Source: Nemertoderma westbladi
Lineage: Eukaryota > Animalia > Xenacoelomorpha
Length of the DNA stretch: 64,000 nucleotides
Assembly (NCBI GenBank): GCA_032718475.1
Contig: JAUCBJ010006790.1
Span: 1 to 64,000, forward strand
Direction: 5' to 3'
This document shows positions 19,457 to 63,000 of this stretch, in pieces. The translations under genes were made by a program, and so were the position numbers. Within the stretch, counting starts at the first letter, position 1. Each line of letters begins with the position of its first letter. The notes under the pieces are model-generated. The model worked only from the letters and a program-made list of their open reading frames with translations. It had not been told where the DNA came from and did not search any database.

Positions 19457-19501
19457 CTTCTACAATTGGAGGGAAACATTGTATGATTTCCCTTGGAGCG
19501 G

Positions 19502-25397: not shown

Positions 25398-26121
25398 GGA
25401 ATCTCTGGTCAGAATGTATGTAACAACAAAATTATTACCCTGTCATTTTGTTATTTACCCGGTTAATTTGACCCTCAGAAATGTTATTTAACCCTTGGAA
25501 CAAGTTATAAACCCTCGGCTTCGCCTCGGGATTTATAACTCGTTCCTCGGGTTAAATAACATTTCTTCGGGCCGTAGTTGTTCTGTTGGCACCATTGTGT
25601 TTGTGGAAGCAGTAAAAAATTATCGGTTGTTTAACTGCGAAGCTGAACTCAATTTATTAGTTAGGATATTTAGGTTTAGCCGGCCATGGTTTTTTGAATC
25701 GCTCAAGTTAGAGAGAGAGTTAGAGAGAGTCGCAACCCGAAGATGTAGCCACGCGCTAGTGGATACATATAATATTTGAAATTAAAATTACGTTGATTAG
25801 AGCTATATATATAAAATTAGAAATATTCGGGCGGCAAGTATATTTTGAATATTTTGTATTAGATTCAAGGTTATTTTGTGCTATACCGGTATTTAATGCT
25901 ATATAGTAGCTATATAATAATATTTTTGTTTAAATATTGTGCTAGTATTTGCTATAACTATATACCCCGGGGCCATTAAATTCACAATATTGCATTGCGA
26001 ATTTATTTGACATTTGGACCAACTGATTATTTGACAAATAATTTGACCGTATTTCGGTTAAATTATATTTATATCTCGAACTTTGCGAGATTTTTGCCGG
26101 AAGGCAAACATTATTTAGACT

Positions 26122-33568: not shown

Positions 33569-34338
33569 TGCTGGACGCAACTCACTTCGTATGCATTCCT
33601 CGTATGCAAATACAAGGAAATGCATAGGAGCGGGGTTGTGGTGATTTGCGTTGAGTTTTGTCTGGTGGGTATCAAAACAAAATTTTATTTTCAAAATTTT
33701 TGGAAAATTAGAAAATTTTAAAAAATTAAAAGTGAACCCAAGACAATTCCAGACGCTGTGTATAGACGCGTTTTAGAATTCGTCTATAGATAAACAGTAA
33801 TTTGAAAAGTCGTGAAGCCTGGAAAATAGCATTTAGAAACCATGGTGACGGCTATATTACGTAGGAGTGTAAATTGAGTCTAGCAACTTCCACAGATTGG
33901 TGCCAACAGTGCAACTAAGGTGCTAAAGGTTAGTAGCACCAGAGGCGTACATGGACCCCACTCAGTAGTTTGCAGGATGTGTGATGTTCGATTATCAAAC
34001 CTGTGGGTTTGGTATAGTCGAGTATTGTGGCTATAGTCCTTTCTAACTACTGTAGTTTAGTACGAGTAATGGGAGTAGTTTGGGCATCAAAAAGTGAGTT
34101 GGTCACGGCCAGTTTATCTCCAAAGTTTTTGCGCTATGCATGGGAATAGGTTAGAGGATAGTTAGTTAGGAAGAGACGGGATCTAGAGAGTCGAACCTGA
34201 ACTGCTGGAAGGCGGGGGGGGGGGGGGGGGGTTCGGGAGGTCTGTCCTTCGGCGACATCTAACTGATTTACCCACAGTGTAGTTGGTTACGTAACGGCAC
34301 TTATTGGGATATATATATATGTATATACGCGTAACATA

Positions 34339-37300
34339 ATGGAGAGGGATATTAGAGCGCAACCGCGCAGAGGATTTACTGCCAGAGAGGAGGCGGAGCT
34401 ACCATTCGCGCGACCAGGATGTAAAGACTCTAACGTTTACTACCATGGGCGGTCCGTGATGGAGCTGAACGGGAAGTACAAACCAAGTTATGATAAAGAA
34501 TTACGGAGAGAAAGAATGAGAGCGTTGGGGGACCGGATGGAAGTCTTGCGGAGAGAGTATCGCACGCGGTATCCCTACGACTTCGCTTTGGACGTGTGCG
34601 ACATTAGCGCAGATCCGGACGAGGAAATCGCACGACTATACCATATGAATATGTATTTACGACATGAGGAGCCTCTACCTGCAGTCCGAGACCAGTTCGA
34701 CGGAATGCATCTGTATCGGAGGACTCGAGGTGAGGATCAGGAGACGCTGAAAGTCTTCAGCGTGTACAAGCTCTTCTACAAGTGTGGTGAATGCATGAAT
34801 AAACAGGACGTGGCGATTCCCGACCGATTAGACGAGCAACATCCGGAACCGATATTAACGCGATGTCCAGCTCACCAATTCCTTAGATACAACGAGGGAG
34901 GTTACCCGATGAGCAACCCGATGATCAGTATCGACTTCAGCAGAAAGCGACCTCCGAGACTCATTACGCCGACCATTACGACATTAGATCCGTATACGGA
35001 GATTAAACCCTGTTCGACACCCAGTTTGATAGAGACGGCAGCAGCCATTTCGCTGTACCGAGCCTACAAGGATCTAGAGGCGCGGCGCGAAGCGGCGCGG
35101 GACTCGGGTACCAAACCCGCGGGTTTGGAGCTCTCGAGTCCCTGGACTACGTTTACTTCACCTCACCGAATGAGAAGCCTCACGCCTGAGCATCAGGACG
35201 ACATAGACGCGTTGCGGCAGGAGGAGCGAGCGGCGAAGGCGAAAGAGTTATTTGAGAACAGGATAGCGGAGTATAATAAGACCGCGGATAGACATCAAGA
35301 GGAGACGAGGAGAGTGACCGGATTTGTTCCACAGGTCGTATCTCAACCCGGACCGGTGTATTATTCCGACGGCACCGAACCTGCGATATTAGTAGATCAT
35401 CCGGAGTCGCGAGAAGCGATACGATTCTTGCCGATGGTAAGAATGGCGGACCATTGGAACGTTGACTGTCTACGGGAAGTTTTATGCGCGAAGTTCTTGC
35501 GTGATGTCCCAATGCAGATCACAGATTATGACACGTTGGATAAGATTGGAGCTCCGGGGAAGGAGAGTAAGCTATTCGGATGGTTGGATAAGTACATCAA
35601 GGTATGGGTCGCGGTGGCTACATTCCCAGACGACGAGGAGGTAGACCAGATGTGGCTGAGGAGGAAGGGTTCTTATACCCGATATGATGACCACAAGGCT
35701 ATCGAGCGCATGTGGACCCCATCAGACGAGATTCAGCGTCAGTGGAGGAAGACGGAGGAATCGCTGCAGGATTGGAGGGTGATGTTCTACGACAATGAAG
35801 GAGGGTCCCATCAGGAATGTTTGACCAGCAAGTGTATTCAAATTCGTGCGGCCGATGGTGTGACTCATGTGTTTATGCGTGTGAGGGCGGATCGAGAGAG
35901 ACCGGAGCCCATCATAACGACACAATATCGGAAAGGGAAGGATCCTAGGGAACAGATTTTGGAGGTATGCAGGCGAGGAGGTATGCACGGAGCGGAGCGT
36001 ATCGACGCCAGGATGTTACCAAAGAAAGTTAGAGAGGCTATTCTCAACCAAGATTACGTCAAGGTGGGATCGGGAGTCCAGAGCGATTTGGAGAGCGACT
36101 TCAACGCCATGACTGATCTGGAAGATAGATTGCCGAGACCGTTTGTCGACACCAAGCTATTGTTGCTATGGGCACAGGATATTGGAATTTATAGGGAGTA
36201 TCCCAACTCTGCCAAGACTGGTATGGGCTTTATAGCACACTTGTTGTATAATTGGGACTTTAAGTTAAAGACGCAAAAGAAGTATGAGGAGGCGTATGGC
36301 GAATACAACACTCCACCGGGAGCGGAGTTCAAATCCCACTTCAAGCGGCAAGCGTTAGTGTATTGGAACATTTGCGCGCCACCCCGTGCGTCGCTACAAT
36401 ATTATTTGGTGCTTGAGTCGAACACGGTGACTTGTTTATTAGCGGATATCGTTGCGCGAGTTTTGAAGTGTCATCCATTGGTATTTGGAGGAGATCAATA
36501 CGTTCGCTCGAAAGGGGGAATCCAATCCGACGTGATGAAGCGTTTCTTAACCCCGTTCTTCAACCAATCGTTAGAGAATACGTCGATGATTAGGAGAGGA
36601 TTAGCGATATTCGAAGGAGTATATCGACAGAACATCGGAGATTTGGGAGACCGACCGTCGATGGAATATCCGACGCCAGAAGCTTTGGAGAAGTGGTTCG
36701 GGAATCAAACCCGCGGGTTTGGTACTCCCTTCCACTCGGAGGCTGATAGACCTGTTAAGGAGGGCTGGCCGGAAACGTTAGTAGAGGTGTTCGGAGTAGA
36801 TCTTCCGGTGGAGAAGACATATCCGAAACGAACGCGGGAGGAAATATTGGAGATAGAGGACAAGGGCGAGGATGTTTACTTTGTTCCGGATCGACAACCG
36901 TTGACTGGAGAGGACGACATCGTATTAGACATTGGGAAGGAAGGAAGTGCGAAACCGATTGGAGACCTCATATACGAGAGGGCCTGGTTTCCACAAGCGC
37001 GTAGGTGCAAGTTGTGCGGCAGCACAAGGCACAATCTAAAGTCGTGCGACGCGGTAGTGGAGGCGGCACATAAAGTCTGTCGTTGGTGTAATGAGACCGA
37101 CCATTCGTTTCACACGTGCACCGTCTTCATTTCTCAATGTGGATATTGTGGGGTAAAGGGACATCGTAGCGCGAGATGTCAGCTGCGAGATGATTCCTTT
37201 CAAAACCATAGCGCTAACCTACTTCGTGAGATGTTAGACAAGTGGGAGAGTGTGGCGGATTACCATATTCAAGCGCAGATGCGTTGGTTACCATTTAAAG

Positions 37301-37779
37301 CGGGATATGGGTTTTGGGCGGTAGACCCATCGCATGTTGCGTACGAGCCATATCTACAATCGCTACCACAATATCAGGAGCTCATCCTAACTGCTCAAGA
37401 CCTTCCACAAAACACTGGAGTTATCGTAGTTCGAGAGTACTTCAGACAATTGAACATGGACAATAAGTACACATGGAACTTCGTTGCTATTTGCGATCGC
37501 ATCACGAAGGGTGTATTTACGGAGACTAGAAAAGTGGTACGCGCGCGAGGTGATTGGAGGATGGCGGCTATACAATACCGCAACGAATTCTTGTTGACTC
37601 ATGTGCCAGTGGGTTCATTGACCGCCGAGAGGATACAGGAACAAAGGATCGCAGCGACCACAGCGACGACCGCTGGAGCTCAAGGCTCGCGGAAAGAACC
37701 AGGAGGAGGGGTCCAAGACAAGCGTCAAGTCAAGGACGATCACTACCATTCGATACCTAAAGAGGTGAGGTCTCTATAG
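34339..37779 (+). CDS. Extra ORF of B (1146 aa): DnaQ/WRN-EXD-like 3'-5' exonuclease domain plus three CCHC zinc knuckles
   Basis: VMFYDNEGG (ExoI DxE), LPKKVREAILNQDYVKVGSGVQSD (ExoII), FVDTKLL, KTGMGFIA, LQYYLVLE (ExoIII-like); CKLCGSTRHNLKSC, CRWCNETDHSFHTC, CGYCGVKGHRSARC. Confidence 0.75.
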   Translation: MERDIRAQPRRGFTAREEAELPFARPGCKDSNVYYHGRSVMELNGKYKPSYDKELRRERMRALGDRMEVLRREYRTRYPYDFALDVCDISADPDEEIARLYHMNMYLRHEEPLPAVRDQFDGMHLYRRTRGEDQETLKVFSVYKLFYKCGECMNKQDVAIPDRLDEQHPEPILTRCPAHQFLRYNEGGYPMSNPMISIDFSRKRPPRLITPTITTLDPYTEIKPCSTPSLIETAAAISLYRAYKDLEARREAARDSGTKPAGLELSSPWTTFTSPHRMRSLTPEHQDDIDALRQEERAAKAKELFENRIAEYNKTADRHQEETRRVTGFVPQVVSQPGPVYYSDGTEPAILVDHPESREAIRFLPMVRMADHWNVDCLREVLCAKFLRDVPMQITDYDTLDKIGAPGKESKLFGWLDKYIKVWVAVATFPDDEEVDQMWLRRKGSYTRYDDHKAIERMWTPSDEIQRQWRKTEESLQDWRVMFYDNEGGSHQECLTSKCIQIRAADGVTHVFMRVRADRERPEPIITTQYRKGKDPREQILEVCRRGGMHGAERIDARMLPKKVREAILNQDYVKVGSGVQSDLESDFNAMTDLEDRLPRPFVDTKLLLLWAQDIGIYREYPNSAKTGMGFIAHLLYNWDFKLKTQKKYEEAYGEYNTPPGAEFKSHFKRQALVYWNICAPPRASLQYYLVLESNTVTCLLADIVARVLKCHPLVFGGDQYVRSKGGIQSDVMKRFLTPFFNQSLENTSMIRRGLAIFEGVYRQNIGDLGDRPSMEYPTPEALEKWFGNQTRGFGTPFHSEADRPVKEGWPETLVEVFGVDLPVEKTYPKRTREEILEIEDKGEDVYFVPDRQPLTGEDDIVLDIGKEGSAKPIGDLIYERAWFPQARRCKLCGSTRHNLKSCDAVVEAAHKVCRWCNETDHSFHTCTVFISQCGYCGVKGHRSARCQLRDDSFQNHSANLLREMLDKWESVADYHIQAQMRWLPFKAGYGFWAVDPSHVAYEPYLQSLPQYQELILTAQDLPQNTGVIVVREYFRQLNMDNKYTWNFVAICDRITKGVFTETRKVVRARGDWRMAAIQYRNEFLLTHVPVGSLTAERIQEQRIAATTATTAGAQGSRKEPGGGVQDKRQVKDDHYHSIPKEVRSL

Positions 37780-39681: not shown

Positions 39682-41873
39682 TGTTACGGTATATGGCGCT
39701 GTATCCATATTATTAGTCATCATGCAGTATGTAATATTAGTCCGTTATGCAGTATGCAATATTAGTCCGTTATACTGTACGTAATATTAGTCCATTGTGC
39801 AGCATGATATTTTAGATAAGGCATAATAACGCAGTGGTATTTAGGTAGGGAAATCAAAACGCCCATATATTTGAAACCATCCATTTTGTATAGTATGTAG
39901 CCCTACCTACGTAATTTTGTATTAGGATATATGTAGATAGTTCCAGGGTAGCGAGTTTATTCGGACCCTGGATTTTGTGCTTGCTGATATTAGTTTGATA
40001 GGGCTAGCATATAGGGACGCCGTCCTGGCCATTCAGCAGCCAGAGACGTGAACCATTACCATATATGGTAATAATTTGAGCAATAGGGCTACAATCCGGC
40101 CTCCTTATTGGATTAACTGCTTCCAGGTTGGTCTAATGCTAGCATGGACTGGAGAGCCAATAGGAGAGCGATTGAGTCACCCTATTGAATCATCCCATCC
40201 GGATCACCTATAAATTGGCGGTGTGCCGGTAGAGCCTATCAATCGATTCAACCTTCACTGCTGTTGTACTTGCTGAGCTGTCTCTATTCAATTTTGACGG
40301 ATTTTAGAGTATTTTTGCAATTTGATTAATTTCTTGAAATGATTTGCTAGTGCGATTACTCTTGCTTGTGTTTCTCAATTAATTCCTTCGATTACTGCTA
40401 ATTACAACTGAACTATGATTTCTACTTTTGATTAATGGTTCTATGTGATTCTTTCCTGCGCAATAATCCTAAGGGATTTCTGAGACTGTCAGACTTTGTG
40501 ATTTGCATGCGCCGCTACGGTAGCTATTAGCGTAATGGAGGGCTAAGGCGCCAGCGGGCGGTGGGCACATCGGGGGGTTGGGCGACTAAGGGAGAGCGGA
40601 GGATTCAAAGCGAGCAACGCTGGCATGGGGTCACCGTTGCGGTCGGGAAGTTAACGCTGTGGTACGCAGACCAATCGCCGGTACGGTAATTAGGGGGCTG
40701 ATGATCCAGGTTTCGTCTCTATTTAGTATTAGGGGGGCAGGAATCAGGTTAGTTAGGAGTCCTATATGTACCCGGGAGAGGCCTGCACGTATCATAACGT
40801 TTCGAACGTTGAGCGTGTAGTACGAATAGTGAGTCGCATAATTGTGGGCTATACAGTAGTTAACTGCATAATTGCGAACTGTGATTGCTGACGCTGATTG
40901 GTGTGTTACTGAAGTGTGCCTATGATTGTGAATGTTTAGGTAGGCGCTCTTTTCTCTTTGATTGATTTCTATTTCTTAGTTACAACAATTAGTTACTGAT
41001 TAGGTCAAAGTAATACGGCAATTTAGGCTATTACTAGCGAAACCTGTTGCGTGATAAATTAGAATTACGTATTCTGGAACTCTTAGTAATTAGTACGCTG
41101 TTAAATATTTGTGACTGTAATTGATTAGTAAAATTAAGAATTAGTACGCAGCATAGCGGAGAGTAGCTAAAGTAATAATTAAGAGTACTGTAAACTATTC
41201 GCGCTGAGCGGTTATTTGCATTAGCGGACAATCAGCTAGAACGCACTATTCGGTACGCACGAAACGCTAGTGATTTGCTGGCCTAAAGCCAGCTGCAGGC
41301 AATTTTAGACCCAGAGTGGTACTATCCACGAGAGACAATTACTGTACCATTTTTGATATTTTAAATATTCTCGCATTCACACATTACGTTAGAGAAACCC
41401 CCAGTATTCGCGATTAGAAAAGACGTAGGTAATAGCGTGCTTTAATAGTGATAGAATTAGGCGTAAGAATACTCTGAGTGCAAGGCCTCTCGCACTCGTC
41501 TTAAGTAAGCTTAGGGAGCCGACTCGGGTTTATTGTTTTGGTTATTCCTGCGTGGCTCATAGATTCGAACAGTTAGCTCTCTATTGAGCAATCGGTAGAG
41601 AAAGGAACAAGCGATTTTGCAGGAGTTGTGTAAAATTAGTAAATATATTAGCGGACGGCAGATTAGCGCCATCCAACGGTAAGTAGCGGTTTTGTATTTA
41701 GCAACCTTTACAATTTAGTAATATCACGCTCCTGATCCCCTTTACTTAACAGTAGAGCAGTCTTTGTGTCTTATTGGTTAGGCGAGAGCTCATTAGGTTG
41801 GCAGAAGGATATTAACGGGTATTGGTCTGTTCAACAGTTCTGCTGTTAGTATAGAGGTCGCGGTTGTTTATCA
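39682..41873 (+). repeat. Element B 3' LTR
   Basis: Copy of 19502-21693; followed by GTAGG, which matches the A-family leader sequence (compare 58642). Confidence 0.87.
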
Positions 41874-42510: not shown

Positions 42511-42865
42511 ACAATCTGGGCAGGCTTACACGGCCTTCTACTCAATATCAACTTACAGGCAAATAAAACTAACAGAAATAAGTAAACTATACAAAGGAAT
42601 GAGGGGTGATCAATCCCTAATCCCCTAGCAGCCTACAATATACAATATCACAATCGAAATAGTACTGCTGTACCTGTACTGTTGTAAGTACCGGTCCGGG
42701 TGATCAGGCAGTCAGGCCTACTGGTCACCGGTCGACCGGTACTTTCGACGACTCGATTGCTTACGCCGCAATCAGAAGTTTAACAAACTGTTATTGTTCT
42801 TACCAGAACAATATTAAACTGTATTTATTGCCTACACTGCAATCAAGAATTTTACAAACTGTTAT

Positions 42866-44082: not shown

Positions 44083-45130
44083 ATGGTGGACAATTCAAGC
44101 ATGGCCCTGAATCGCCTTAAAGGAATCCTGAAAAGGCTTAATACCCAACCTGACCTTAAGGACCAATATAATGAAGTAATGGCTGGGTACTTAAAAAACG
44201 GATTGACAGAGTTGGTACCAGATGAAGAGATTAAAGGATCCTCCAGAACATACTACTTACCAACACACTACGTGATAGAAAAGCGTAAGGCTGGTAAGAT
44301 GAGAGTCGTTAATGACGCCACGGCCTCCTTCCAAGGTGAATCCCTACACAGCCAGTTATACACCGGACCAAACATCTATAGCAACCTGGTTGGCGTATTG
44401 CTTAGATTCAGGCTCAGAACAAGGTGGCTTTTACATGCGACATCAAATCTATGTTTCATCAGGTACGCACACTAGACAGAGACTCTGACAGCTTGCGGAT
44501 ACTATGGACCAACAAGACACTTAATATCTCAGAAATAAACAGCCTCACGCTGAATGATGTTGACATCTTAATAATGGTGGTACGTATCTTCAGTGCAAAA
44601 GACTCGCCAGTCGTGTGCAGTGATATGATTAAGAAAACTGCGGATATGCTGGAAGATAAATATGATCCCAGTGAAATCAGTCGTCACGCCAACTGGAAGA
44701 AATCGCAAGCGTTGGCAGCACACTGGTGGAGGGTATGGTTGCACGAATTTCTGATAACACTCAGAACCCGCCGGAAATGGAATCACATTCACCGAATCAT
44801 CGCGGTTGGAGATATGGTGCTTGTCAAAGATGAACTGAAAGATCGTGTTCATTGGCCTGTGGCGCGTGTTACCAAGATTTTCCCCGGAAAAGTCGGTCTC
44901 ACCCGCACCGTGATGATCCAAACATCAAAGGGCCACTACGATCGCCCGATCCAAGCTTTATGTTTACTAGAAGCAGTTTGTGATGACGTTGTAGAGTGCC
45001 CTGCCAAGGGCCACTACGATCACCCAATCTAAACTTTATATTTACTAGAAGCAGTCGGTGATGACGTTGTAGAGTACCCTGAAAAGAAACACTACGACCA
45101 CCAAATCCAGACTTTGTGTCCTCTCAAGGA
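44083..45130 (+). pseudogene. Old Bel/Pao C, 3' part: RT N-terminus fused by deletion to the integrase C-terminus, ending in three 78-bp repeats
   Basis: ALNRL..LKRL, YYLPTH, KMRVVNDA, LLRFR, DIKSMFHQV, then WWRVWLHEFL..R.KW, WPVARV, YDRPIQALCLL; CACTACG at 44934, 45012, 45090. Confidence 0.85.
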
Positions 45131-45461
45131 TGACCGTAAAATAAAGTAAAGGAGTCAATCAAATAAACTGAGTATTCACATACTATAATGTTGATGAAAA
45201 TAATGGTGATTTAATGACAACGATTATGGACTTTCTTTGACACCCTGTTACCACGCACCTGATTTGGAATTCATTTTCCTCGTGTGATGTATGAAAAGTC
45301 CAGCGTCACCCTGCGGAATGCATCTGCGCAGACTGCAGGGTGGTTTATGTTGACGATGTACAGCTGGATTTAATGGAAATTTGTTGAATGGATATGTTAA
45401 CCTCAAAAATATTTATTATGGATTTCATTGTAATCATCGCGTTGGTTTTCACTCTAGGTGC

Positions 45462-45680
45462 GGGCCCTGGAGCAGTGTAACGAGCCCGCTGCTCTCGTTG
45501 AGTTTGTCTTCCTTCCTACGTGTTGTTTTGTTCCCGATGGTTTTCTTTCTGGGGATGGCCCTGGAGCGGTGTAACGAGCCCGCTGCCATCTCTAGTTTGA
45601 TTTCTGTCCTTCATGTTATCATTGTTCCGTTGAGTCTTCATACCGGGGATGGCCCTGGAGCGGTGTAACGAGCCCACTGC
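45462..45680 (+). repeat. Three ~94-bp units anchored by GGCCCTGGAGCRGTGTAACGAGCCC
   Basis: Anchors at ~45463, 45557, 45651; the intervening sequences are diverged but related. Confidence 0.75.
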
Positions 45681-47265
45681 CATTTCCAACTTGATTTCCC
45701 AACAACCTATGTACAATATGTTTGTCCCGAGGATGAAATATCTAAAAAGACAAAAAAAAGGTGTATAATGAGATAAAAAGGAATATAAAAAGGAAAAAAA
45801 TGATTTGAAAAAGAAAAAGAAAAAAAGGCGTATAATGCGATGGAAAATAAATATAAAAAGAAAATATTGAAGTGAAAAAGATAATGATAAAAAAGATAGA
45901 AATAAAGAAATACGAAAGAACGGACAAAAGAAGTCATAAATAAAAGGACATAAAAAGTAGATCTTAGTAGAAATAGGGTTGTACTGTACAGTACAACAGT
46001 AATATATATTATTACAACAAACAAATACAAACACTAAAAAACACAAAACAAACAATGGCTGTAATACCCACCACCAGGAAACAATCATACTTTAAAAATA
46101 ACTTTTAGGTAGGAGTGGGAAAAGTCCAACAATATATTATTTACAGGTTTATTTACATGGCCAATGTTGGGAGACCGGCCCCGTCCTCAAATCCCAGACC
46201 ACTACGTCACCTCGTGCGAGATCCACGCAGGCAGTGGGACATAAAGGACATAAAAAGTAATTTTGAATGTTAATTGAAAGCTTATGAATTAATGTGGAAA
46301 GTACTACTGGCCTCCAAACCAGCAATAAACCTAATTCAGCAATGCATAACAGGAAAGACAGTTGCTGAGGAATCAGTATTTCCAGACCTTTGATTTCTTG
46401 ATTTCGTAACTTTCCTATTTCACCTGCAACAAATTAACTAAATTACAGTCCCGCTCTCAAAAAGCATTCCTTTGATCAAACTTTGATGAAACATTGATCA
46501 AAATGTGCCCATAGAATAGCATTGAAAGTATATAGCAGTGACATTGAAATGACACTGATGGTATATTGAAATGACCTTGAAATCGACGGACCGAAATTCC
46601 AGACTTTCTGTCTCATATTGAAATGACATTGAAATGTTTAACAGTTTACATCTCGCTTCTGCGGCAAGCCTTTGTACTCAGATTCCCGCCGAGAACTGGC
46701 TTTTATTGCTAATGGCCAAGTCGCTATGTGATTGACATCAGGGCGACGGATGGAGCGTGCTTGATTTTGTGGATGGACATCGATTAGATTTACAAGGTAG
46801 GGCTGTATTGTGGTAGTGTCCCAGACTGAGTCTTGTAGGGCCTATTATTACACTAAACAACTAGTTCAGAAAAACTTTTTTTGGAATATTTTTGAATTAT
46901 TGCTTATTATAAATTTGTTTTAATGTTCCTTAAATCAGAATCAAGGCCAAAGACCTTCATTGGCCAGCGCGATGACTGCCGTTGCATTGTATTTTCTTAT
47001 ACAGTAATTGTTTAAATTCGACAAGCTTGCCCTCTGCCCCTGTGTCTAATTTTCATAATAAATGTAAATAAAGAAATAAATAAATCCATAAAATCTATTT
47101 TTATTTATAATTTGATTATACATAACTGCTTTGTGATCATAAAAAATTCACGTAAGTTGGAAATTGCAAGCTAGAAATGTAGGCCTACGTAATGAGCGGA
47201 CACCATCAAAAATCTTCTAAAAAATTTATGTAATTTGATTTTAATACTCTATCTGATGAGGTATT

Positions 47266-49104
47266 TGTTCGCGCTTTTAGACCTTTAGCAGTTTAACCTG
47301 CCAATTTTAGTTGTCTTTTTGTTTATAAATCGACTTTAGCCTATATCGATTATTTAATGTATTCTTGTATTCTTGTATATATATTTAGCGATTTAAAATT
47401 CACACGGTAGAACTCGTAGAGCACACCAAATTAAGTACATAAACCTAAAAACTGCAGTATATCAAATAATTAAGTACGGGCCTACAGTTGTAAAAATTAC
47501 GCAAATAAGGCACAAAATGCACATAACTAATAATGAGAAAAAAAAAAACATTATAGTAAAAATATACATTGTATACAAATTGTGCAAAAACTGGCTAATT
47601 CTTCTGTTTAAATGGACAATGCAATGAAAGAAATGTAGTCCATTTAATTTATTTTAATACTTGTACCTTAGTTAGGGAGTTTGACTGGATAGGTCTCGAG
47701 TCAGTGTATCCAGGCGAGCCTGGACAATCTGGGACGGTGTAAAGATATGCATCAAGATGCTTTTTAAAAGTCTCCAGTGCGCAGCCTGTCAAGTCTCTTA
47801 TATGTTTTGGGATGGTGTTAAATAATTTAGGTCCAATAACACAAAAACTGTTGTCTATAAGAGAGGAGACGCGACATGTAGCCTTACTTGCAAGGGACGG
47901 TATGGTACAAAGTCGACCTCTGCGGATGTTTTTTGTAGATTTAATTTTATAGGTTAGATCTGAAATATTTGGAACTCTATTTTCGATAATTTTCCATGTA
48001 TATATTATTATATACAATATATTAATGTAATGAAGTTACATCCACCGAAGCCAGTCTGTGCGCGACCATTCACGCACAGTTAAGGGAGACTGGATTCGGG
48101 TGCTTTGACGTTATTGCGTTGTAGACCTACTGTATTATTCGATTGATCGTTTACTATATAATCTCTGACAATATATTTACTTTTGGGGAAATATTAACAG
48201 TTCCTTTAGGACGTGGCACTTTAAGTATAAAAACAGAGTTAAGACTTATACTAATCACAACTAGATGGCTACTGAGTTTCGTAAAAAGCGCATTCTTTAG
48301 GAGATGCTTTATTAACCTTCACACTACTTCACACTACTTCACACTACTTCACACTGATCTGCCGACCATCACTGAATTTGATCATATATAAGGAGGATCG
48401 CAACTGACACATGTAGGGATTATGAAATAGCATTTAATTCACACATAAAACAACTATAATGTAAGTCGCAGTTGCTACCGGTAAACCTGTTCCTCTAACC
48501 TTCAGTAATCAAGAAGATTGTGGGGTTTTATGATTATTCATCGGTATTCTCCAAATATATCAGCAATATACATTAACATAACACCAATTAATAACAGAAG
48601 CAAATAATGGGGTGAACAGTCAGTATGTGTTACTTATGCAGAGTTCCATGAGCAGCAATGTTCAATATGTGATTCGCGTGATGCGTTAATAGTTTTACGT
48701 TCTTGTAATCAAAGCCATCAGATCTTTAGGCCAAAGTCTGAAACTTCCACAATCAGAAGTACAGAAGACTTCCAAGCAGTTCTCTCGCTCAGAAAGGTAA
48801 ACAAAGACCGTAATGCATTGCGCAGTTTTACATAGGCCCTTGTTCAACATAAAGTGAAAATCGCTCTGATTGGCTGAGTAGAACAAAGAGGTTCCACATT
48901 TACAGAAAATCAGCTGACAGATTTCGTCATCTGAGCTCCAGTCTTTTAGAGTATTAGGCGCATTGCGGCAAAAATGACTTGTTATGTCCGCTAAATCACC
49001 TACACGGTACATTGCGGAGAAAAATGACTTGTTATGTCCGCTAAAGTACCTACACGGTACATTGCGGAGAAAAATGACTTGTTATGTCCGCAAAAGCTTT
49101 TACA
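47266..49104 (-). repeat. A2 3' LTR interrupted by a LINE fragment; ~48-bp triple repeat in U3
   Basis: Matches 59324-60483 once 47362-48029 is removed. Confidence 0.88.
47362..48021 (-). mobile_element. 5'-truncated CR1-like LINE 3' end with (TACAAGAA) tail and 8-bp TSD
   Basis: YIIIYTWKIIE..VPN..RRGRLC..SF...GPKLFN.IPKHIR..FKKHLDAYLYTVPD.P; TTAATGTA at 47354-47361 and 48022-48029. Confidence 0.8.
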
Positions 49105-52373: not shown

Positions 52374-53929
52374 TCACGTTGAGGAGTCCCTAGATGTTTG
52401 TTGGATTAAGGAGGTGGTCGTGGGAAGAGTATCTTGCCTTCCACAGTCTACGGACAGTTCTCGGTCTCTTTCCAGTAAACATAAACGACCAACTGGGCGA
52501 TTGAGTTGTTGTGTTTCGAATACAATTCCAGGTTTCTTCTTCGTCCTAGAATAGTGATGATGGAAACACCAAGTCCGGCTTTTGGTGAGGAGATCAATTG
52601 TATTTTCCTCATCGTATGGCTGGTTAATATCGTCGTTATCTGAGGAGTATGGTGTTCCCTCAGTTGTGGTCTCTCCCTCACTGATTTCTTCTTCCCATTC
52701 ACTCACCTGATGTACCTTTTCGTTAGGTAGTCTTTCCATGAGTGTTCTACGGGAAGGTCCAGCGAAGTACCAACCTACTCTCGTTCTTCCCGCATATGTT
52801 TGTAATGGTTGCGGTCGAGCAGGCCGTTTTTCTAATGTCTCTAGCGCCTCATGCGCATTTTGGCCGATCAATATCTGTACCCCTGGGTAGTCGGTGTTGA
52901 ATCTAGGGATATCATGCTGCTGGGTAAAATGGTCTTCATCCCAGTTGTAAGGTTCCACTTGGCTGGTAGCAAAGTTCTTTATCGCCACCATTTTTACTGA
53001 CCTTATACTATGTTCGCCTAGTTCATCCTGGGGAGTGGACAACGCGCCTACATAGTAGTCTGTAGCTACTGTGGATTTCCAAACCTGCATAATTCCTGAA
53101 AGGTTCAACTTAGTTCGGAACTTGGGTTGTCCAGCAAAGATGTCTTCGGCTAGTTCTTTGTCGATGAATGTACCTGTGCTGCCGGAGTCAAGGAGGGCGT
53201 TTACTATTAAACTTTTCCCTAGCCCGTGGACTCTCAGCTGCACTACAGGGAATTCCCGGAGTCCGACGTTGGAAGCCGGCGCTTTCCAAGATGGTTGCTG
53301 GTCCGGACTAGTCAGTTGTGCTTCCTTATCGGTATCAGTCTCATACGTAAGTGCTCGATACACTGCAGTGTTTATCATATGACAGGATTCGTTTTCGTCA
53401 GAGAATTCGTCCGTGTAGAATCCTTCCATCTCAGAGCTGTGGTCAGTGTCGTTCACATCACTGAATTGGACATGTAGTTCGGGCTCACTTACCTGACTCG
53501 TGCGGGTTCTTTCAAATTCTGTGTGCAGCAAGATATGATGTTTCGCGCCGCACTTAGCACACCTCGCACCTGAATAACAGGTCCGCCGTTGGTGTCCTTG
53601 TCTGAGACAATTATAACACAACCGCTTATCCCACATGACATTACGTCTATCCTTTAGGGATTTCTTCAAGAATTCATCACATCCACTTAAACGATGGGGC
53701 CCGTCGCACAATGCACATTTGGGTTTGATGTTACTTACTTTAACTTGTGTTGTGTTGTGCACCCTTGTTCTTTCTTTGGGCTTTCTTCCATGAATTCTCT
53801 TAGGAGACGTAGGAGGAGTTGTTACCTGTTCTCTCCTGTCACTGGTTATATATTCTATCTTCTGTTCTCTCCTGTCACTGGTTCGAGACTTAGATTTACT
53901 TACGTCTTTCCTCGGTTTATTGACATAAT
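52374..53929 (-). pseudogene. A2 gag C-terminus (3 Zn knuckles) and aspartic protease
   Basis: CALCDGPHRLSGC, CYNCLRQGHQRRTC, CAKCGAKHHILLH; ALLDSGS; ILIG; RTRVGW. Confidence 0.88.
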
Positions 53930-54179
53930 TAAATAAATTGGAGATCACCTTTAATTACAGTTGCAACAGCTCATCTCCAATTTATTTAATTAATATCACC
54001 TGGCAGCAATACTCGAGCTGAATATTTATTTATTTGTACTTCCCTCCTGTTTCACTCTAGCATACTTGAGGCCGTTAGGTCCACTGTTAGAGATAGAATA
54101 TATGCAACTTAAGACTGCCCGTTCAATAGAAGTGGATTAGGTGGGACTGTGAGTGTCAGGGGCTAGTGGCTGAGCTGGT

Positions 54180-54227
54180 TAGCGCTACTGATGAGGCCTG
54201 TTAGGCCGAAACGTACGTATAGCGCTG
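54180..54227 (+). ncRNA. Type I minimal hammerhead ribozyme, copy 1
   Basis: Stem I UAGCGCUA/UAGCGCUG, CUGAUGA, stem II GGCCU-GUU-AGGCC, GAAA, short palindromic stem III ACGUACGU; predicted cleavage after GUA at 54219. Confidence 0.92.
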
Positions 54228-54520
54228 GTTCAACCCCCGGTGACGCGCTCTCATTTTTTCCACTTCTGAACAAACCCATTATATTACACCTTTAATTACA
54301 GTTGCAACAGCTCATCTCCAATTTATTTAATTAATATCACCTGGCAGCAATACTCGAGCTGAATATTTATTTATTTGTACTTCCCTCCTGTTTCACTCTA
54401 GCATACTTGAGGCCGTTAGGTCCGCTGTTAGAGATAGAATATATGCAACTTAAGACAGCCCATTCAATAGAAGTGGATTAGGTGGGACTGTGAGTGTCAG
54501 GGGCTAGTGGCTGAGCTGGT

Positions 54521-54568
54521 TAGCGCTACTGATGAGGCCTGTTAGGCCGAAACGTACGTATAGCGCTG
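54521..54568 (+). ncRNA. Type I hammerhead ribozyme, copy 2
   Basis: Identical core to copy 1; predicted cleavage after 54560. Confidence 0.92.
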
Positions 54569-54860
54569 GTTCAACCCCGGTGACGCGCTCTCATTTTTTC
54601 CACTTCTGAACAAACCCATTATATTACACCTTTAATTACAGTTGCAACAGCTCATCTCCCATTTATTTAATTAATATCACCTGGCAGCAATACTCGAGCT
54701 GAATATTTATTTATTTGTACTTCCCTCCTGTTTCACTCTAGCATACTTGAGGCCGTTAGGTCCGCTGTTAGAGATAGAATATATGCAACTTAAGACTGCC
54801 CGTTCAATAGAAGTGGATTAGGTGGGACTGTGAGTGTCAGGGGCTAGTGGCTGAGCTGGT

Positions 54861-54908
54861 TTGCGCTACTGATGAGGCCTGTTAGGCCGAAACGTACGTA
54901 TAGCGCTG
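54861..54908 (+). ncRNA. Type I hammerhead ribozyme, copy 3
   Basis: Intact core; one stem I mismatch (TTGCGCTA); predicted cleavage after 54900. Confidence 0.88.
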
Positions 54909-55201
54909 GTTCAACCCCCGGTGACGCGCTCTCATTTTTTCCACTTCTGAACAAACCCATTATATTACACCTTTAATTACAGTTGCAACAGCTCATCTCC
55001 AATTTATTTAATTAATATCACCTGGCAGCAATACTCGAGCTGAATATTTATTTATTTGTACTTCCCTCCTGTTTCACTCTAGCATACTTGAGGCCGTTAG
55101 GTCCGCTGTTAGAGATAGAATATATGCAACTTAAGACTGCCTGTTCAATAGAAGTGGATTAGGTGGGACTGTGAGTGTCAGGGGCTAGTGGCTGAGCTGG
55201 T

Positions 55202-55249
55202 TAGCGCTACTGATGAGGCCTGTTAGGCCGTAACGTACGTATAGCGCTG
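55202..55249 (+). ncRNA. Hammerhead ribozyme, copy 4 (probably inactive)
   Basis: Core GAAA mutated to GTAA at 55230-55233. Confidence 0.75.
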
Positions 55250-55309
55250 GTTCAACCCCCGGTGACGCGCTCTCTACTATTCTTCTGAACAAACCCATTA
55301 TATTACACC

Positions 55310-57374
55310 TATTGACATAATAAGATCTTTCGGTGTCCTTACTGCTGTTTTCATCGTAGGACGTCGTCTGACTCCCACAATCCGTATAACACACTGGTGT
55401 TACCTCTCTCCTAGTAACGGGTTTTTCACTTACCTTACTTTCAGGAGTCTTCTCTCTAGACTGTTTTAGGAGTTGTAATCTTACCTCTCTGTTTAAGAAT
55501 GATAGAAGGTCCATCATGGTTGGATCTCTATGTTGTTGGTCCATCAAATAGAGAACCTTTTTGTCCCAGCGAGTACCTACTCCATCCTTTGGCAAAGTTG
55601 ATGCTAAGGCTCCTACAACCATAGAATTCTGGTATTCATGAGACTTACCCAACCAGTCTAACTGTCTACAGATCTCCTGAATCTCGTCGGAAAACTCTAT
55701 AATCCCGCTGCTAAGAAACTTTCGGGGCGCCATTAATTTCGCATATAAATACCTAGCTATGTTAGTCCTATTACCATACCTGATGTTTAGTGTATCCCAA
55801 ACTTGTCTTAATCCATCTGGATGTCCAATAAACTTTAACGCCATTAACTTGGGAGGTCCTTCCAAGCACTCGATGAGGAATCTAAGTTTCTCTCCGTTGG
55901 ATAGTACAGAGTTCTGTATGTTATCTTTGTAATATTCATTAAAAGGTAACCATTTCATCTCATCTCCATTGAACTTGACGATCTCTCCCACCTTTACCGC
56001 TTGACTGGCTTCAGTTCTAGCCATTTGACGCGTAAAACTTTCTTGGGCCATCGTATTATTTAATATCGAGTTATCAGTATATAAATTTCTCGGATTAGGA
56101 TCAGGTCTATATGGAATATCATTATCAACAGGTTTATAATTACCCTTAATAGGGTTCACTATAGGAGTTTCTACTTCACTAGCAGTATAGATGCGTGTAG
56201 GCTCCACACCTTGCGCATGAAATACTTCAGACCTAACAGGTTGACACATTGTTACAGGGGGTGGTGGTATACCCTTTTGTATATTTACCAATTTATCGCG
56301 TTCTAACGCGATACTCTGCTGCACTTCTTGCAACTCTAACCTACCCTCTCTTACTGTTCCCTTTAACTGCTGAACAGTCCCCTCCAACTCTCGGACCTGT
56401 TGGGAGGAATGTACATGATGTTCCCCATCTGCCCGAGCAGGAGATCCATCACCCGCCGTCGCTCATCCACCCACTCTACCGCCGAAGCGGGAGCCACCAA
56501 CATAGTAGCGGGTAGACGAGGGACGACGGGCGACAAATCGTTGATGTCTTGCTCGGCGTCCAGGACCGGTATTGATTCAGGGGCTGCTCTACTGGGCACA
56601 GGTAGTTTAGTACTGTGCAAAGGGAATTTAGAGTTAAGTTCTGGAAGTACAGGGGTCTCTATTTACAGAGGGGGTGACTTCGAAAACAGGCCTAATTATT
56701 TCAGGCTCATCTACTATAGTAGGGAGTCTGTCTACTCTAATAATTTGGTCTGTGGGTTCATGATTACCTAAGTCTACACTAGCCAGTTGCCTTCTCACCG
56801 CAGGAGGTAAATTAGGTAACTTCTGACGGTGTGGCGTTCTTCTACGTCCGCTTGAACGAGATTTATTACCTCTACCTTCGGGATCTGTTGTATCACCTTC
56901 ATCGGAGGAGGCAAATCCCTGTCTTCTGGGAGTAGATCGACTCAGTAACTGCATCTGAGTAGCTGTCCTTTGTTTCTTCAAATAATCTTGTTTCGCCTGA
57001 AGGTTTTCCAGCTCTTGTTGGGTAGTCGCTTCAGGCGCCTTCCGTTCTGCTTCAGCCACTGCCGCTTTCCTTTCAGCCTCTGCTGCTGCCGCTTTTCTAT
57101 CAGCCGCTGCCGCTTTCCTTTCAGATTCTGCCGCGGCCGCTGACCTTCGGTCTTCTATTTGCCGTTTCTTTAATTGTTCCTCTTGTTCCATTGCCATGAG
57201 GATGCCATGACGGTGCTGTACTAGCCTAGGGTCTGACACTACTACTGTAGGGATGACCTTTCTTACAGTAGGATGGGACTTGGACTTCGGTCTCAGATAT
57301 TCTATACTTCTATCTGATTCACAGACTGTTCTTTCTAGGAGACTATCTGACAGTGTTTGCTTTGTGTCAGCCAT
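55310..57374 (-). pseudogene. A2 gag N-terminus and core (DUF1759-like), frameshifted twice
   Basis: KFNGDEMKWLPFNEYYKDNIQNSVLSNGEKLRFLIECLEGPP..L..RYG; upstream coiled-coil ORF 57374-56634. Confidence 0.85.
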
Positions 57375-59323
57375 GATTTATTTTACAGTTGAATGCCTAC
57401 TACTATAACGACAGTTAAAGTAAGTCTAGTAATTCAGCATCAACTGCAAGCCTAGTGATTAATTACCGATACCGTTACTCAGTGTAACGCGATATATTAA
57501 TATATTAAATACCGGTATACTTATAGTATATATATAAGTATTATTACAGACTAGGATTAGTCACAGAATACCGGTATATAATTTCAGCATAAATTTATAT
57601 AAATATATATAATAAGCCTACCGTAAATACCGGTATACACCTATAGTATATATAAGTATTATTATAGACTAGGATTAGTTACAGAATCCCGGTATATAAT
57701 TTTAGCCTAAATTTATAGAAATAAATATAATAAGCCTATCGTAAATACCGGTAATGTCAATTATTGATGATAACTGAATTTCGGAATTTTAGGGTTACTT
57801 TCCTTTACTTTATTACTGTTATTAAGCAGTAGTCCAACTGATATTAAGACCTAATTGATGTATAACAGGCCTACTATTTTATAAATCGGTTTGAGTTGAT
57901 TTATAATATATTATGTACCCGTACAAGGGTTTCTGACAATATTTGAAATAAATGTTATTATTTCTGGGTAAGGGGGTCACTACACAGAAGCTGAACGCTC
58001 TCAGTGGAGTGCTACCTGTTAGACACTAAAACGAATAATTCTACTTTACTAAGTTACTTATCACTACAAATTACTTACAATTACAGTGTGAGATTACAAT
58101 CTCTAAATAAACACCAAAAGTTACACGTACAAATTTTAGGGTAATTTTACAAGAAATCTACAAACCAGTCTAACAAGGAGTTAGAATTTCTGGTTCTTAC
58201 AAACTGACAGGAATCTACGGTATTTGAAAACAATAAAGCAGTAGTAAGTAAATTGCGTTGTCCAGATAAGAAAATACCACCGTCTGACGACTTATAGTCT
58301 TAAACTATAAGTACTACATTATGTACCCGGAGTGTCCTTACCTAGAAGTTAATTACCGCAGCCAACCAGAGCTAACATGCCTATTATACAACACAAATAT
58401 ACTGCCTACACACTAATTAGGCCTACTTTCGGAAAGCACTGTACGCTAAACCCTAAATTAGGTACAAGTACTTATACAACAAATAACCAGCAGTTAAATA
58501 TACTTGTACAGGTAAAAGAACCACGGTATCTGCTGGAGTGACCAGAGCACAAAATCACCAGTCTTTACCTACGCCAAGCAGCCCTGATGTAGTACCGGGG
58601 TTAATTTAACTATAACGGTATGTATAACAAGCACAATTACTGTAGGAATAAACTTGGGGGTTATGTAGGTTGCGAATACTCGCATAGACTCTGAATAATA
58701 AATATTACGCTACCCGTGCAGACTATACAAACAAAATACAGACCAAATGCTGGGGGACTACTGTCAAGCCTAAATAAACTACAGTATATGCAGACTCCGA
58801 AATGGTTAGTTAGTAGGCGTTCTAACTGAGTAGTACGACTTATTCTTTCGGGGGGGATTTACCTTACAACACTGGATGCCCCCACCTTCCTAACTAGTAC
58901 TTTATCGGACATACACTCTACACACACTGCAATCGCTTCAGACTTAACAACAGTCAGACAACAATCCAGCCTACAAATTATTTGTACAATTTGAGCGGGC
59001 TTACACGCCTTCTGCTCAATATTACACTTACAGATAAATAAAACTGACAGAAATAAATAAGCTCCAAAAGAAATAAGGGGTGTACAGTCCCTACTCTCTT
59101 AAACAGCCTACCAATATACAATATCACAATCGAACTAATACTGGCACCTATAAGTACTGGTTCGGGTGGTTGGGCAGTTAGGCCTACAGGTTACCGTCCG
59201 ACCGGTACATTCGAATTTATTGCCTACGTGCAATCAAGAAACAAAAATATATTATTGTTCTTACCAGAATAATAGACAAAATATTTATTGCCTACTGTGC
59301 AATCAAGAATTTAAAACTATTAA

Positions 59324-60483
59324 TGTTCGCGCTTTTAGACCTTTAGCAGTTTAACCTGCCAATTTTAGTTGTCTTTTTGTTTATAAATCGACTTTAGCCT
59401 ATATCGATTATTTAATGTACTGAAGTTACATCCGCCGAAGCCAGTCTGTGCGCGACCATTCACCCACAGTTAAGGGAGACTGGATTCGGATGCTTTGATA
59501 GTGATTGCGGTGTAGACCTACTGTATTATTCGATTGATCGTTAATATATAATCTCTGACAATATATTTACTTTTGGGGAAATATTAACAGTTCCTTTAGG
59601 ACGTGGCACTTTAAGTATAAAAACAGAGTTATGACTTATACTAATCACAACTAGATGGCTACTGAGTTTCGTAAAAAGCGCATTCTTTAGGAGATGCTTT
59701 ATTAACCTTCACACTACTTCACACTACTTCACACTGATCTGCCGACCGTCACTGAATTTGATCATATATAAGGAGGATCGCAACTGACACATGTAGGGAT
59801 TATGAAATAGCATTTAATTCACACATAAAACAACTATAATGTAAGTCGCAGTTGCTACCGGTAAACCTGTTCCTCTAACCTTCAGTAATCAAGAAGATTG
59901 GGGGGTTTTATGATTATTCATCGGTATTCTCCTAATATATCAGCAATATACATTAACATAACACCAATTAATAACAGAAGCAAATAATGCGGTGAATAGT
60001 CAGTATGTGTTACTTATGCAGTGTTCCATGAGCAGCAATGTTCAATATATGATTCGCGTGATGTGTTAATAGTTTTACGTTCTTGTAATCAAAGCCATCA
60101 GATCTTTAGGCCAAAGTCTGAAACTTCCACAATCAGAAGTACAGAAGACTTCCAAGCAGTTCTCTCGCTCAGAAAGGTAAACAAAGACCGTAATGCATTG
60201 CGCGGTTTTACATAGGCCCTTGTTCAACATAAAGTGAAAATCGCTCTGATTGGCTGAGCAGAACAAAGAGGTTCCACGTTTACAGAAAATCAGCTGACAG
60301 ATTTCGTCATCTGAGCTCCAGTCTTTTAGAGTATTAGGCGCATTGCGGCAAAAATGACTTGTTATGTCCGCTAAATCGCCTACAAGGTACATTGCGGAGA
60401 AAAATGACTTGTTATGTCGCTAAAGTACCTACACGGTACATTGCGGAGAAAAATGACTTGTTATGTCCGCAAAAGCTTTTACA
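59324..60483 (-). repeat. A2 5' LTR (1160 bp)
   Basis: On the minus strand reads TGTAAAAGCTTTT...AAAAGCGCGAACA; related to but diverged from the A1 LTR. Confidence 0.9.
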
Positions 60484-60919
60484 GTATTTTTATTAAAAAC
60501 TTAATTTCCTTTAAAGTAAACTACAGTATGTACATCTTTAGTTACTTAGTTTTTAAATCGTTTAACATATTATTGTAATCATAATTTTTTAAATATTGAA
60601 AATCAAATTGGTTTATTAATACTTATTAAATTATGCTCATTCATTTTTAATTAATGGAGGGTTTTAACCATCCGACAAACCATACTTTTGCTCACAGGTC
60701 GTTGTAAGACAAGACATTCAATATAACCCCAGTTTTCCCATCCCCTCTCTTTTTGTGGACTATTATTACTTGTACAAGCTGCGGACCTGCACGCGCCCCC
60801 CCCCCCCCCCCCCCCATTATAATGTGTTGTAGGTAGCCATCCACCCAACACATTGCATAACTCAGAATATACTCCACAGCCCTTACCCGCCCGCCCTTGC
60901 ATTCATTAGCGCCACATGG

Positions 60920-61519: not shown

Positions 61520-63000
61520 ACGGTATATTAAACTATTGCGGTATCACCAGCCCATAGTGGAGGACTTCAAACAACATTGGAAAGAGTGACTAGCGGAGAA
61601 TGTTCGAGTGTTAAAGATCACCGTTCGAGAGGATGTCGATAGGAAGAACTTGCACGCCCTGAAACTTTCCGGAGCTAGTACAAGCCTGAAAAGGATTCGG
61701 AAAGTAACGGAGGTGGATGGGCAGTGCTCATTCTGGGAGGCCTTCAAAGGAGCCGATGAGGAGACAAGCTGCATTATCTACGACAACAAGGGGAAGTCAA
61801 CTGCGGTTTCGAAGGAAGTCGAACTTAGGCGCTGCAGGAGTTCGTCAACAGTCACCCAAAGTTACTCAACTACTACACGGCGACCTTCGATAGTCGGAGG
61901 TATTGTGTTCCACGCGGGTAGAACATATAAAGTCTATGGAAGCCTACCAGGTGGAGTACAACTCACAGAACACCAAAGAACATCAAAGGTTGTAATCTTC
62001 GGCAACCTCGTGGGTTTAGTTTTAATCTGCCAAATTCCTCCACAATCCGAAGATAAACTGGTCGGAGCGTTATGGATCATACCCTCCGATATAAGAAACC
62101 GAATACTGCACGATGGGATCATCAAGATCGGCTCAGATATTAAGAGCAACCTACATAGCAACTTTATCGGTGCTCTGAAAGATCGTAAACGGAAACTGGA
62201 TGTCACCTTCCTAAAAAAATTCGTCGATACGCAAGTGTTGCTCGCCTGGATGAGACACGGTAACTGATGCAACAGTTCCGAGGCATTATGAAAAATAAGA
62301 CTAGCTTAGGGTATCTAGCTGTACTGAATGGCGGTATTGATTTCAAACCCTACCAGTTCCAGGAATACCTCTAATAATCTATCTCAGCCATGATGACCTA
62401 TTCGTTTCATCCAAGAAAGACCCGCGTTGGTGCGATGCAGAGTGGGACTGGTCAATGTACTACCAATGGGAAAACCCCAGCGAACGACACTACATATATG
62501 TCACTATGGAGTCGTTCACTGTCAGGACCCATGTCGGATGAGGAGGTAATGGTGGAGATAGAGTTACTTGGTGAGCCTGCAGTGGATCCATTCGAGGTAC
62601 CATCGGCTAAGCGAATATTCATCTTCGAGGGGAACACCGACGACTGATTTCATAGCCCGGCGAGATCCACCGACGACGCACAAACGCTTGATGTGTTCAA
62701 ATGGCAATGTAAGACAATGTCGCCATGCCGGCTACCGGAAGGAATGGGAATGGGAATGGGCAATGCCTAGTACGAGCCATCAGGATATAGAACCGATGAT
62801 GGTCCACGAGGGGCCTTTCCTACCACCGGCCCCCGAGGATATACTCGGCGTTTCTCGGATGGTTTACCAAGGGTAAACATTGGATTAAAAAGGCCATTGC
62901 CAGAACCCGTAACTGCCGAGGTGCCGCGCGACCCAATGAGACTTACATATTGGTATTTAGAACAAGCCAAATGGATACAGAGACAAATCGGTTTGATCCA
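61520..63000 (+). pseudogene. Degenerate homologue of the B extra ORF (exonuclease-like region)
   Basis: IIYDNKG ~ MFYDNEG; IPSDIRNRILHDGIIKIGSDIKSNL ~ LPKKVREAILNQDYVKVGSGVQSDL; FVDTQVLLAW ~ FVDTKLLLLW; KTSLGYLA..IDFK ~ KTGMGFIA..WDFK. Confidence 0.72.

Follow-up and report, generated by a model that had tools for sequence, protein, structure and literature searches.

The window analysed here, 64,000 nucleotides of contig JAUCBJ010006790.1 from Nemertoderma westbladi, is laid out as a set of nested LTR elements (Table 1). Element A2 lies on the minus strand between copies of a 5-bp target duplication, AATAC, at 60484-60488 and 47261-47265, and its two LTRs are 96.4% identical. The 3' LTR carries an insertion of about 650 nt (47362-48008) with a duplication of about 20 nt on its flanks, and the gag region is broken up by four 341-nt tandem copies at 53946-55310. 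Domain searches and reading of the translations indicate that RT, RNase H and most of integrase are missing from the coding region of A2, so RT would have to come in trans. Most of the interior of element A1 has been replaced by element B. The pol of B is broken by a stop at 32024-32026, and no target duplication was found at its rearranged flanks. A stretch of 46 nt that includes a PPT (19456-19501, plus strand) directly precedes the left LTR of B, which for this reason looks as though it had once been the 3' LTR in a tandem or recombined pair.

Table 1. Features of elements A1, A2 and B in the window
Feature	Position	Strand	Remarks
A2 element	60483 to 47266	-	
A2 5' LTR	60483-59324	-	1160 nt, TGT...ACA
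A2 3' LTR	47266-49104	-	directly after PPT ending GGAGCGG
A2 gag and protease	52374-57377	-	in pieces; DUF1759, three Cys-His motifs
A2 PBS core	59312-59323	-	12 nt, flush with LTR end, no TGG
A2 predicted self-primer segment	60066-60077	-	predicted 3' end 60066; putative priming role
A2 second helix, PBS side	59304-59309	-	pairs with 60080-60085
A2 second helix, LTR side	60080-60085	-	
A2 LTR-internal partner of primer segment	59670-59706	-	predicted fold; two 7-nt arms around a hairpin, overlaps AATAAA
A2 candidate promoter	60180-60253	-	CCAAT and weak TATA-like motifs upstream of primer segment, from motif reading
A2 rival start site	59735-59771	-	TATA-like and initiator-like motifs, conserved in A1 and A2, from motif reading
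A1 element	44079 to 18378	-	5-bp target duplication ATTAC
A1 5' LTR	44079-42866	-	
A1 3' LTR	18378-19456	-	5' end cut by element B; primer copy 19127-19137
A1 PBS core	42855-42865	-	11 nt
A1 predicted self-primer segment	43615-43625	-	
A1 LTR-internal partner of primer segment	43217-43260	-	homologous to A2 partner
B left LTR	19502-21693	+	2.2 kb
B partner LTR	39682-41873		99.9% identical to left LTR
B PBS	21694-21704	+	9 Watson-Crick pairs and terminal G-U with 20605-20615
B gag and pol	26119-33568	+	protease, RT, Peptidase_A17, integrase, DUF5641

Other reading frames and fragments lie in and around these elements. Within B, a 479-residue ORF (22970-24409, plus strand) matches DUF3504 and Phage_integrase and is flanked by palindromic repeats, related to each other, at about 22458-22525 and 25477-25566; we take it to be a Crypton-like tyrosine recombinase. 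Between the pol and the 3' LTR of B is an intact extra ORF of 1170 residues with Cys-His motifs (34267-37779, plus strand). It has no Pfam match above the cut-off and its middle part no convincing match in the PDB; a weak lead in the Atlas points to clusters of 3'-5' exonucleases (PF01612; score 0.87), and a related fragment occurs near 62076-62249. Another Bel/Pao fragment, with a piece of RT and DUF5641, occupies 44089-45698 on the plus strand. After it come three repeats of 94 nt; two of them include the word GGAGCGG-TGT that joins PPT to LTR start and is also present in A2 and B. A GNAT acetyltransferase frame at 10-750 and an RT fragment with a weak DUF6451 match at 7669-8472, both on the plus strand, lie at the beginning of the window.

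The protein domains are those of Bel/Pao elements: DUF1759 in A2 (E = 1.5e-13), and Peptidase_A17 (3.4e-39) and DUF5641 (1.2e-17) in B. The RT-RNase H region of B is 37-43% identical to the 120 matches listed, all of which have PF05380, and the named relatives of its RT in this range belong to cnidarians, echinoderms, a brachiopod, a limpet, tunicates and a fish. Three Cys-His motifs in Gag mark Bel/Pao, and these motifs, with the order protease-RT-RNase H-integrase, can be read from the translations of B and A2 taken together (A2 lacking RT and RNase H). LTRs of the TG...CA type and a PPT are present; target duplications are found in A1 and A2 only. Since the coding region of A1 is missing, that element is placed by the identity of its LTR and leader to those of A2. 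The ICTV profile of the Belpaoviridae, which calls Bel/Pao replication poorly understood, describes the same gag-pol order, TG...CA LTRs, PPT and Pfam domains, and has replication primed by a host tRNA to which an 18-nt PBS is complementary (PMC8742986). No such 18-nt tRNA-complementary PBS was found in A1, A2 or B. Their membership rests on the proteins, and the PBS is the feature in which they depart from the family.

The original prediction held that the sequence following the 5' LTR of A2 has no TGG and is complementary to a segment of the LTR itself, as if the element primed minus-strand synthesis with its own transcript. TGG is indeed absent within 9 nt of the LTR end in all three elements, and no tRNA gene or Rfam family was matched within the window. 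The 20 nt that follow the A2 LTR (59323-59304) pair with 60066-60085 through 12 contiguous pairs, two mismatches and six further pairs, the 18 of 20 that had been claimed, and the copy in the 3' LTR (48686-48705) pairs identically. Not one of 1000 dinucleotide shuffles of the LTR reaches 12 Watson-Crick pairs; with G-U allowed, 37 of 1000 do. Contig depth over the A2 LTR is high (four contig runs), and among the contig rows listed no variant falls at the PBS or the primer segment.

A1 differs from A2 at both sites and yet pairs, 11 of 11 contiguous. Three positions, 1, 5 and 11, distinguish the two PBSs, and exactly these three are changed between the LTR sites, which are homologous in alignment; exchanging the partners between A1 and A2 destroys the flush pairing. 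B is, as foreseen, a weaker third case, with 9 Watson-Crick pairs beginning at the second base after the LTR end and a possible G-U at each end. Six of 1000 shuffles equal this pairing at its offset, and the self-pairing of B is only suggestive. The segment lies about 740 nt from the LTR end in the A elements and 1080 nt in B, as against 61-360 nt in those relatives where the distance was measured. The leader after the 5' LTR contains a duplicated unit with a second PBS (42784-42865 in A1 and 59230-59323 in A2, both on the minus strand). The unit is intact in A1, where the second, identical PBS copy (42784-42794) is preceded by GAACA, mimicking the LTR end, and has decayed in A2. A 19-nt motif common to the A1 and A2 LTRs had no match in the viral or genome contigs searched, and protein scans of the viral contigs returned no relatives.

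To gather relatives, the RT-RNase H region was aligned and, with only the best 80 of 546 stretches kept, 78 loci on metagenome contigs were obtained; 66 could be scanned, the other 12 having too little sequence upstream of RT. When the LTRs were read by eye, the match to the PBS was often seen to stop at a pyrimidine tract and AG and to resume before an upstream GT. Over 115,842 positions, every one upstream of RT in the 66 loci, a strict junction scan yielded 35 rows. Of these, 26 (23 loci, 20 families) were accepted on the grounds of a start 0-4 nt from a preceding CA or TA and a location 2.5-3.9 kb before RT, a choice made by position after the scan, and 9 were off target. In each of the 20 families the PBS pairs with its own LTR over 10-15 nt across a predicted GT-AG joint, compared with 4-9 nt unspliced. 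The predicted introns measure 71-426 nt, and the donor reads GTAAG in 16 of the 20 accepted cases against none of the 9 off target. Four loci begin in or near the intron and show the acceptor half only; loci whose LTRs were unreadable, or for which nothing was returned, were left unclassified. A loose TGG pattern in the relatives proved to be mostly noise, tRNA-like only in L005 and L053.

Together with the contiguous cases A1, A2, B, L002 and L018, the junction families make up 25 families with 23 distinct primers. Own pairings span 9-15 nt, whereas 600 foreign pairs average 3.7 nt; the 12 foreign pairs that reach 10 nt all fall inside two groups of close relatives. A fixed-end test, in which the LTR end is set by two LTR copies independently of pairing, gave 8 self-pairing loci (6 of junction type, 2 contiguous) and 1 of TGG type among 9 in this first set, where the LTR end of L016 was moved after the sequence had been inspected and the LTRs of L002 are only 74% alike. 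Eight loci of a second set of 40 (L079-L118) likewise have ends fixed by two copies: three are of TGG type, three self-pair over 11-12 nt and two are partial. L088 pairs over 11 nt across a GTAAGT intron (8+3, under the strict filter), L089 over 11 contiguous nt at offset 4, and L115, whose LTR end is uncertain, over 12 nt across an intron, while L080 and L085 have acceptor-anchored matches of 7-8 nt and no clear donor. Self-pairing reaches at most 7 nt in L101, L109 and L112, which are of TGG type. The strict scan of the second set gave 15 rows in 58,481 positions, 3 of them counted on target. Covariation of PBS and LTR, which the original prediction had proposed to look for across Bel/Pao families, is positive in two separate sets of loci. 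The 40 contigs of the second set, filed as bacterial or archaeal genomes, encode relatives of Bel/Pao RT, several with paired LTRs; these contigs are probably host DNA within the bins.

Since the primer is intron-split in most readable relatives, A1, A2 and B appear to be an intron-less form of a wider arrangement. Spliced primers were tried for these three as well, and the best reach 7, 6 and 4 nt in A1, A2 and B at the flush offset; the contiguous site is better in A1 and A2, and a spliced primer was therefore rejected for these elements. L018 has an acceptor-bearing LTR at one end and an intron-less LTR at the other, as expected if a spliced copy is sometimes reverse-transcribed, although its contig may be a chimera of copies. 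In an RT tree of 90 rows (FastTree, midpoint root) the junction-type families are scattered across the sample and B stands on a long branch near L001 and L048 (support 0.905); the tree has no outgroup and so does not give the order of intron gain or loss.

The position of the transcription start bears on how the segment could act; the original prediction has it, as a candidate, near 60085-60090. In 22 of 25 families the helix has a pyrimidine-purine step at its 5' edge, against a background of 0.43 (p = 5e-6, relatedness being ignored), which would fit a start there. The 14 nt upstream of the segment also pair better with the 12 nt after the PBS of their own family (permutation p = 0.0016, 20 representatives; p = 0.56 for a control window). 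For such a second helix the upstream nucleotides would have to be in the RNA, and the start would lie at least about 10 nt further up than the edge of the core helix. Candidate promoter motifs in A1 and A2, CCAAT and weak TATA-like sequences, occur about 100-190 nt upstream of the segment, and a conserved pair of TATA-like and initiator-like motifs about 330 nt downstream. If transcription began at the downstream pair, the segment would fall in U3 and simple fold-back of the 5' end would fail. No consistent TATA was found 30 nt upstream of the segment across families. An initiator, TCAGT, was considered as the start of the segment and rejected, since the AG in question is a predicted splice acceptor.

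Folding predictions add a second partner for the segment, inside the LTR. Among the 12 pairs of this internal partner that are homologous in A1 and A2, three changed on both sides, one became G-U and none was broken; the AATAAA of A2 is AACAAA in A1, matching the change in the segment. Predicted binding energies are -9.4 and -17.1 kcal/mol for the segments with their own partners and -2.1 and -4.1 with the partners swapped. Measured against shuffled LTRs the internal partner is significant in A1 (0 of 40) and marginal in A2 (3 of 40), and the A2 segment finds an equally good window in the A1 LTR. Among the families as a whole such partners occur unevenly (p < 0.05 in 7 of 25; mean z -0.87). 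At equilibrium, the primer-PBS helix of A2 has a pair probability of 0.6-1.0 in RNA from 60095 and of 0 from 60185. A2 with a short leader is the one case in which folding favours such a helix; the energy needed to force it is 8.5-13.9 kcal/mol in A1 and 0.3-8.9 in B. The fold with the internal partner outcompetes the PBS helix in A1, and in A2 with a long leader. In these predictions the internal partner would compete with the PBS for the segment in both elements, which argues against spontaneous pairing in cis; a chaperone, for example nucleocapsid, would presumably be needed.

Self-priming of this general kind is known outside Bel/Pao. In Tf1 the transcript's first 11 bases pair, with RNase H cleaving between bases 11 and 12, according to the consulted portions of PMC7175516 and PMC4600332. 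Tf1 and Tf2 of S. pombe, Tj1 and the Tf1/sushi group of Ty3/gypsy elements are described, in the sections available, as likewise having no tRNA PBS and an LTR segment of about 11 nt complementary to the PBS, and the elements here share this complementarity between the PBS and some 11 nt of their own LTR. The elements of the window differ from Tf1 in several respects. Their Pol is of the Bel/Pao type and not that of Ty3/gypsy chromoviruses, their LTRs measure 1.2-2.2 kb, and the segment is only a candidate for the first bases of the transcript. Moreover, their relatives build the segment across a predicted intron, and A1 and A2 have a competing internal partner. A1, A2 and B likely work like Tf1 and yet are not members of the Tf1/sushi group. 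Self-priming has also been predicted for plant Tcn1 (gypsy) and TAR/Houba/Osr-1 (copia), by the criterion of at least 10 nt complementary to the LTR and starting 0-5 nt after it (PMC6317226, in excerpt). The same criterion describes A1 and A2, but the plant elements belong to gypsy and copia, and the excerpt mentions neither Bel/Pao nor an intron. Bel/Pao self-priming is likewise not mentioned in the portions consulted of PMC554778, PMC3118150, PMC2774666, PMC8220671, PMC3601003 and PMC6934838, and no report of it was found in the literature searched (most subscription papers, supplements, Repbase and GyDB being outside its scope).

The pairing, the compensated changes and the survey of two sets support the tRNA-independent reading put forward originally. 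It is likely that A1 and A2 are Bel/Pao LTR retrotransposons that prime minus-strand DNA with their own RNA, as Tf1 does and with no tRNA, and B probably does the same. Complementarity, register, covariation, family specificity and absence from TGG-type relatives are established by sequence; we infer transcription of the segment, splicing, fold-back, cleavage by RNase H, priming and use of the primer as template for the next PBS. Fold-back of the LTR transcript would let the segment anneal flush with the LTR end. If RNase H then cut at the segment's 3' end, as in Tf1, a 3'-OH would be freed, from which RT could copy U5 and R. Later the primer would itself be copied into the new PBS, keeping the two matched. 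Copying of a primer into the next PBS is known from retroviral replication, and here it would account for unbroken Watson-Crick cores near 11 nt and for the presence of the spliced letters in the PBS. Most readable relatives would possess the segment only after removal of the LTR intron by splicing. An intron upstream of the cut could still be inherited, presumably because minus-strand DNA copies that part from the 3' LTR. In the intron-less A1 and A2 the internal partner is predicted to hold the segment until the PBS takes over.

Part of the evidence would also fit a primer of the same sequence supplied in trans, either by a short transcript of the LTR that stops at its poly(A) site or by the U3 at the 3' end of a co-packaged genomic RNA. 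The conserved downstream TATA-initiator-like pair, the long loop of 740-1080 nt between segment and PBS, the disfavoured cis helix in the A1 fold and the many LTR copies in the host implied by the high contig depth all point in this direction. On the other hand, the short intron-bearing LTRs of the relatives put the joint tens to a few hundred nucleotides before the PBS, which suits pairing in cis, and the intron would be most simply kept up over generations with splicing of the 5' copy and use of the 3' copy as template. We regard priming in trans as unlikely, and it is still self-priming in the broad sense. A somewhat less probable alternative is that the pairing forms a structural or regulatory helix, acting in packaging, dimerisation or translation control, while some other primer is used. 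The segment does belong to a structured region, as its internal partner indicates. However, the helix terminates no more than 4 nt from the LTR end, just where DNA synthesis must start; its unbroken Watson-Crick cores of 9-15 nt are mostly 11 nt, the length of the Tf1 primer; and the pairing is absent in TGG-type relatives.

Half-tRNA primers have been reported for some Ty1/copia lineages (PMC6317226, in the part consulted), and by extension a fragment of a host tRNA or another small RNA might prime these elements, the match to the LTR being a by-product. For this, 23 separate host RNAs would be needed, every one of them with a match in the LTR of its element and often only across an intron, and the mirrored changes in the A1 and A2 LTRs would be left unexplained; it seems very improbable. 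Least credible of all is that AT-rich LTRs are complementary to the PBS by chance. Once G-U counts as a pair, the run lengths of A1 and A2 are reached by 2-4% of shuffles and that of B by 32%, but the absence of any equal among 1000 Watson-Crick shuffles, the three compensated changes, and the swap and out-of-sample controls stand against it. Chance pairing is rejected for A1 and A2; for B taken alone it may still apply.

Priming by the element's own RNA may be part of a more general scheme. As a tentative proposal, which we hold with somewhat less than even confidence, a large branch of Bel/Pao in aquatic animals could use a gated self-primer, the gate being splicing in most families and a co-evolving RNA switch in the intron-less A lineage. 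Only the spliced 5' copy would pair with the PBS, so that the unspliced 3' copy would be spared and would pass the intron on; in the A lineage the switch would also cover the position of the poly(A) signal.

If the self-priming reading is true, this mode of initiation is present in a third superfamily of LTR elements, and the lack of a detectable tRNA PBS in such elements is explained. Were the spliceosome to make the primer, the onset of reverse transcription would be coupled to splicing by the host. How the primer is controlled where splicing plays no part could then be seen by natural comparison in the intron-less A family, whose segment has two co-varying partners.
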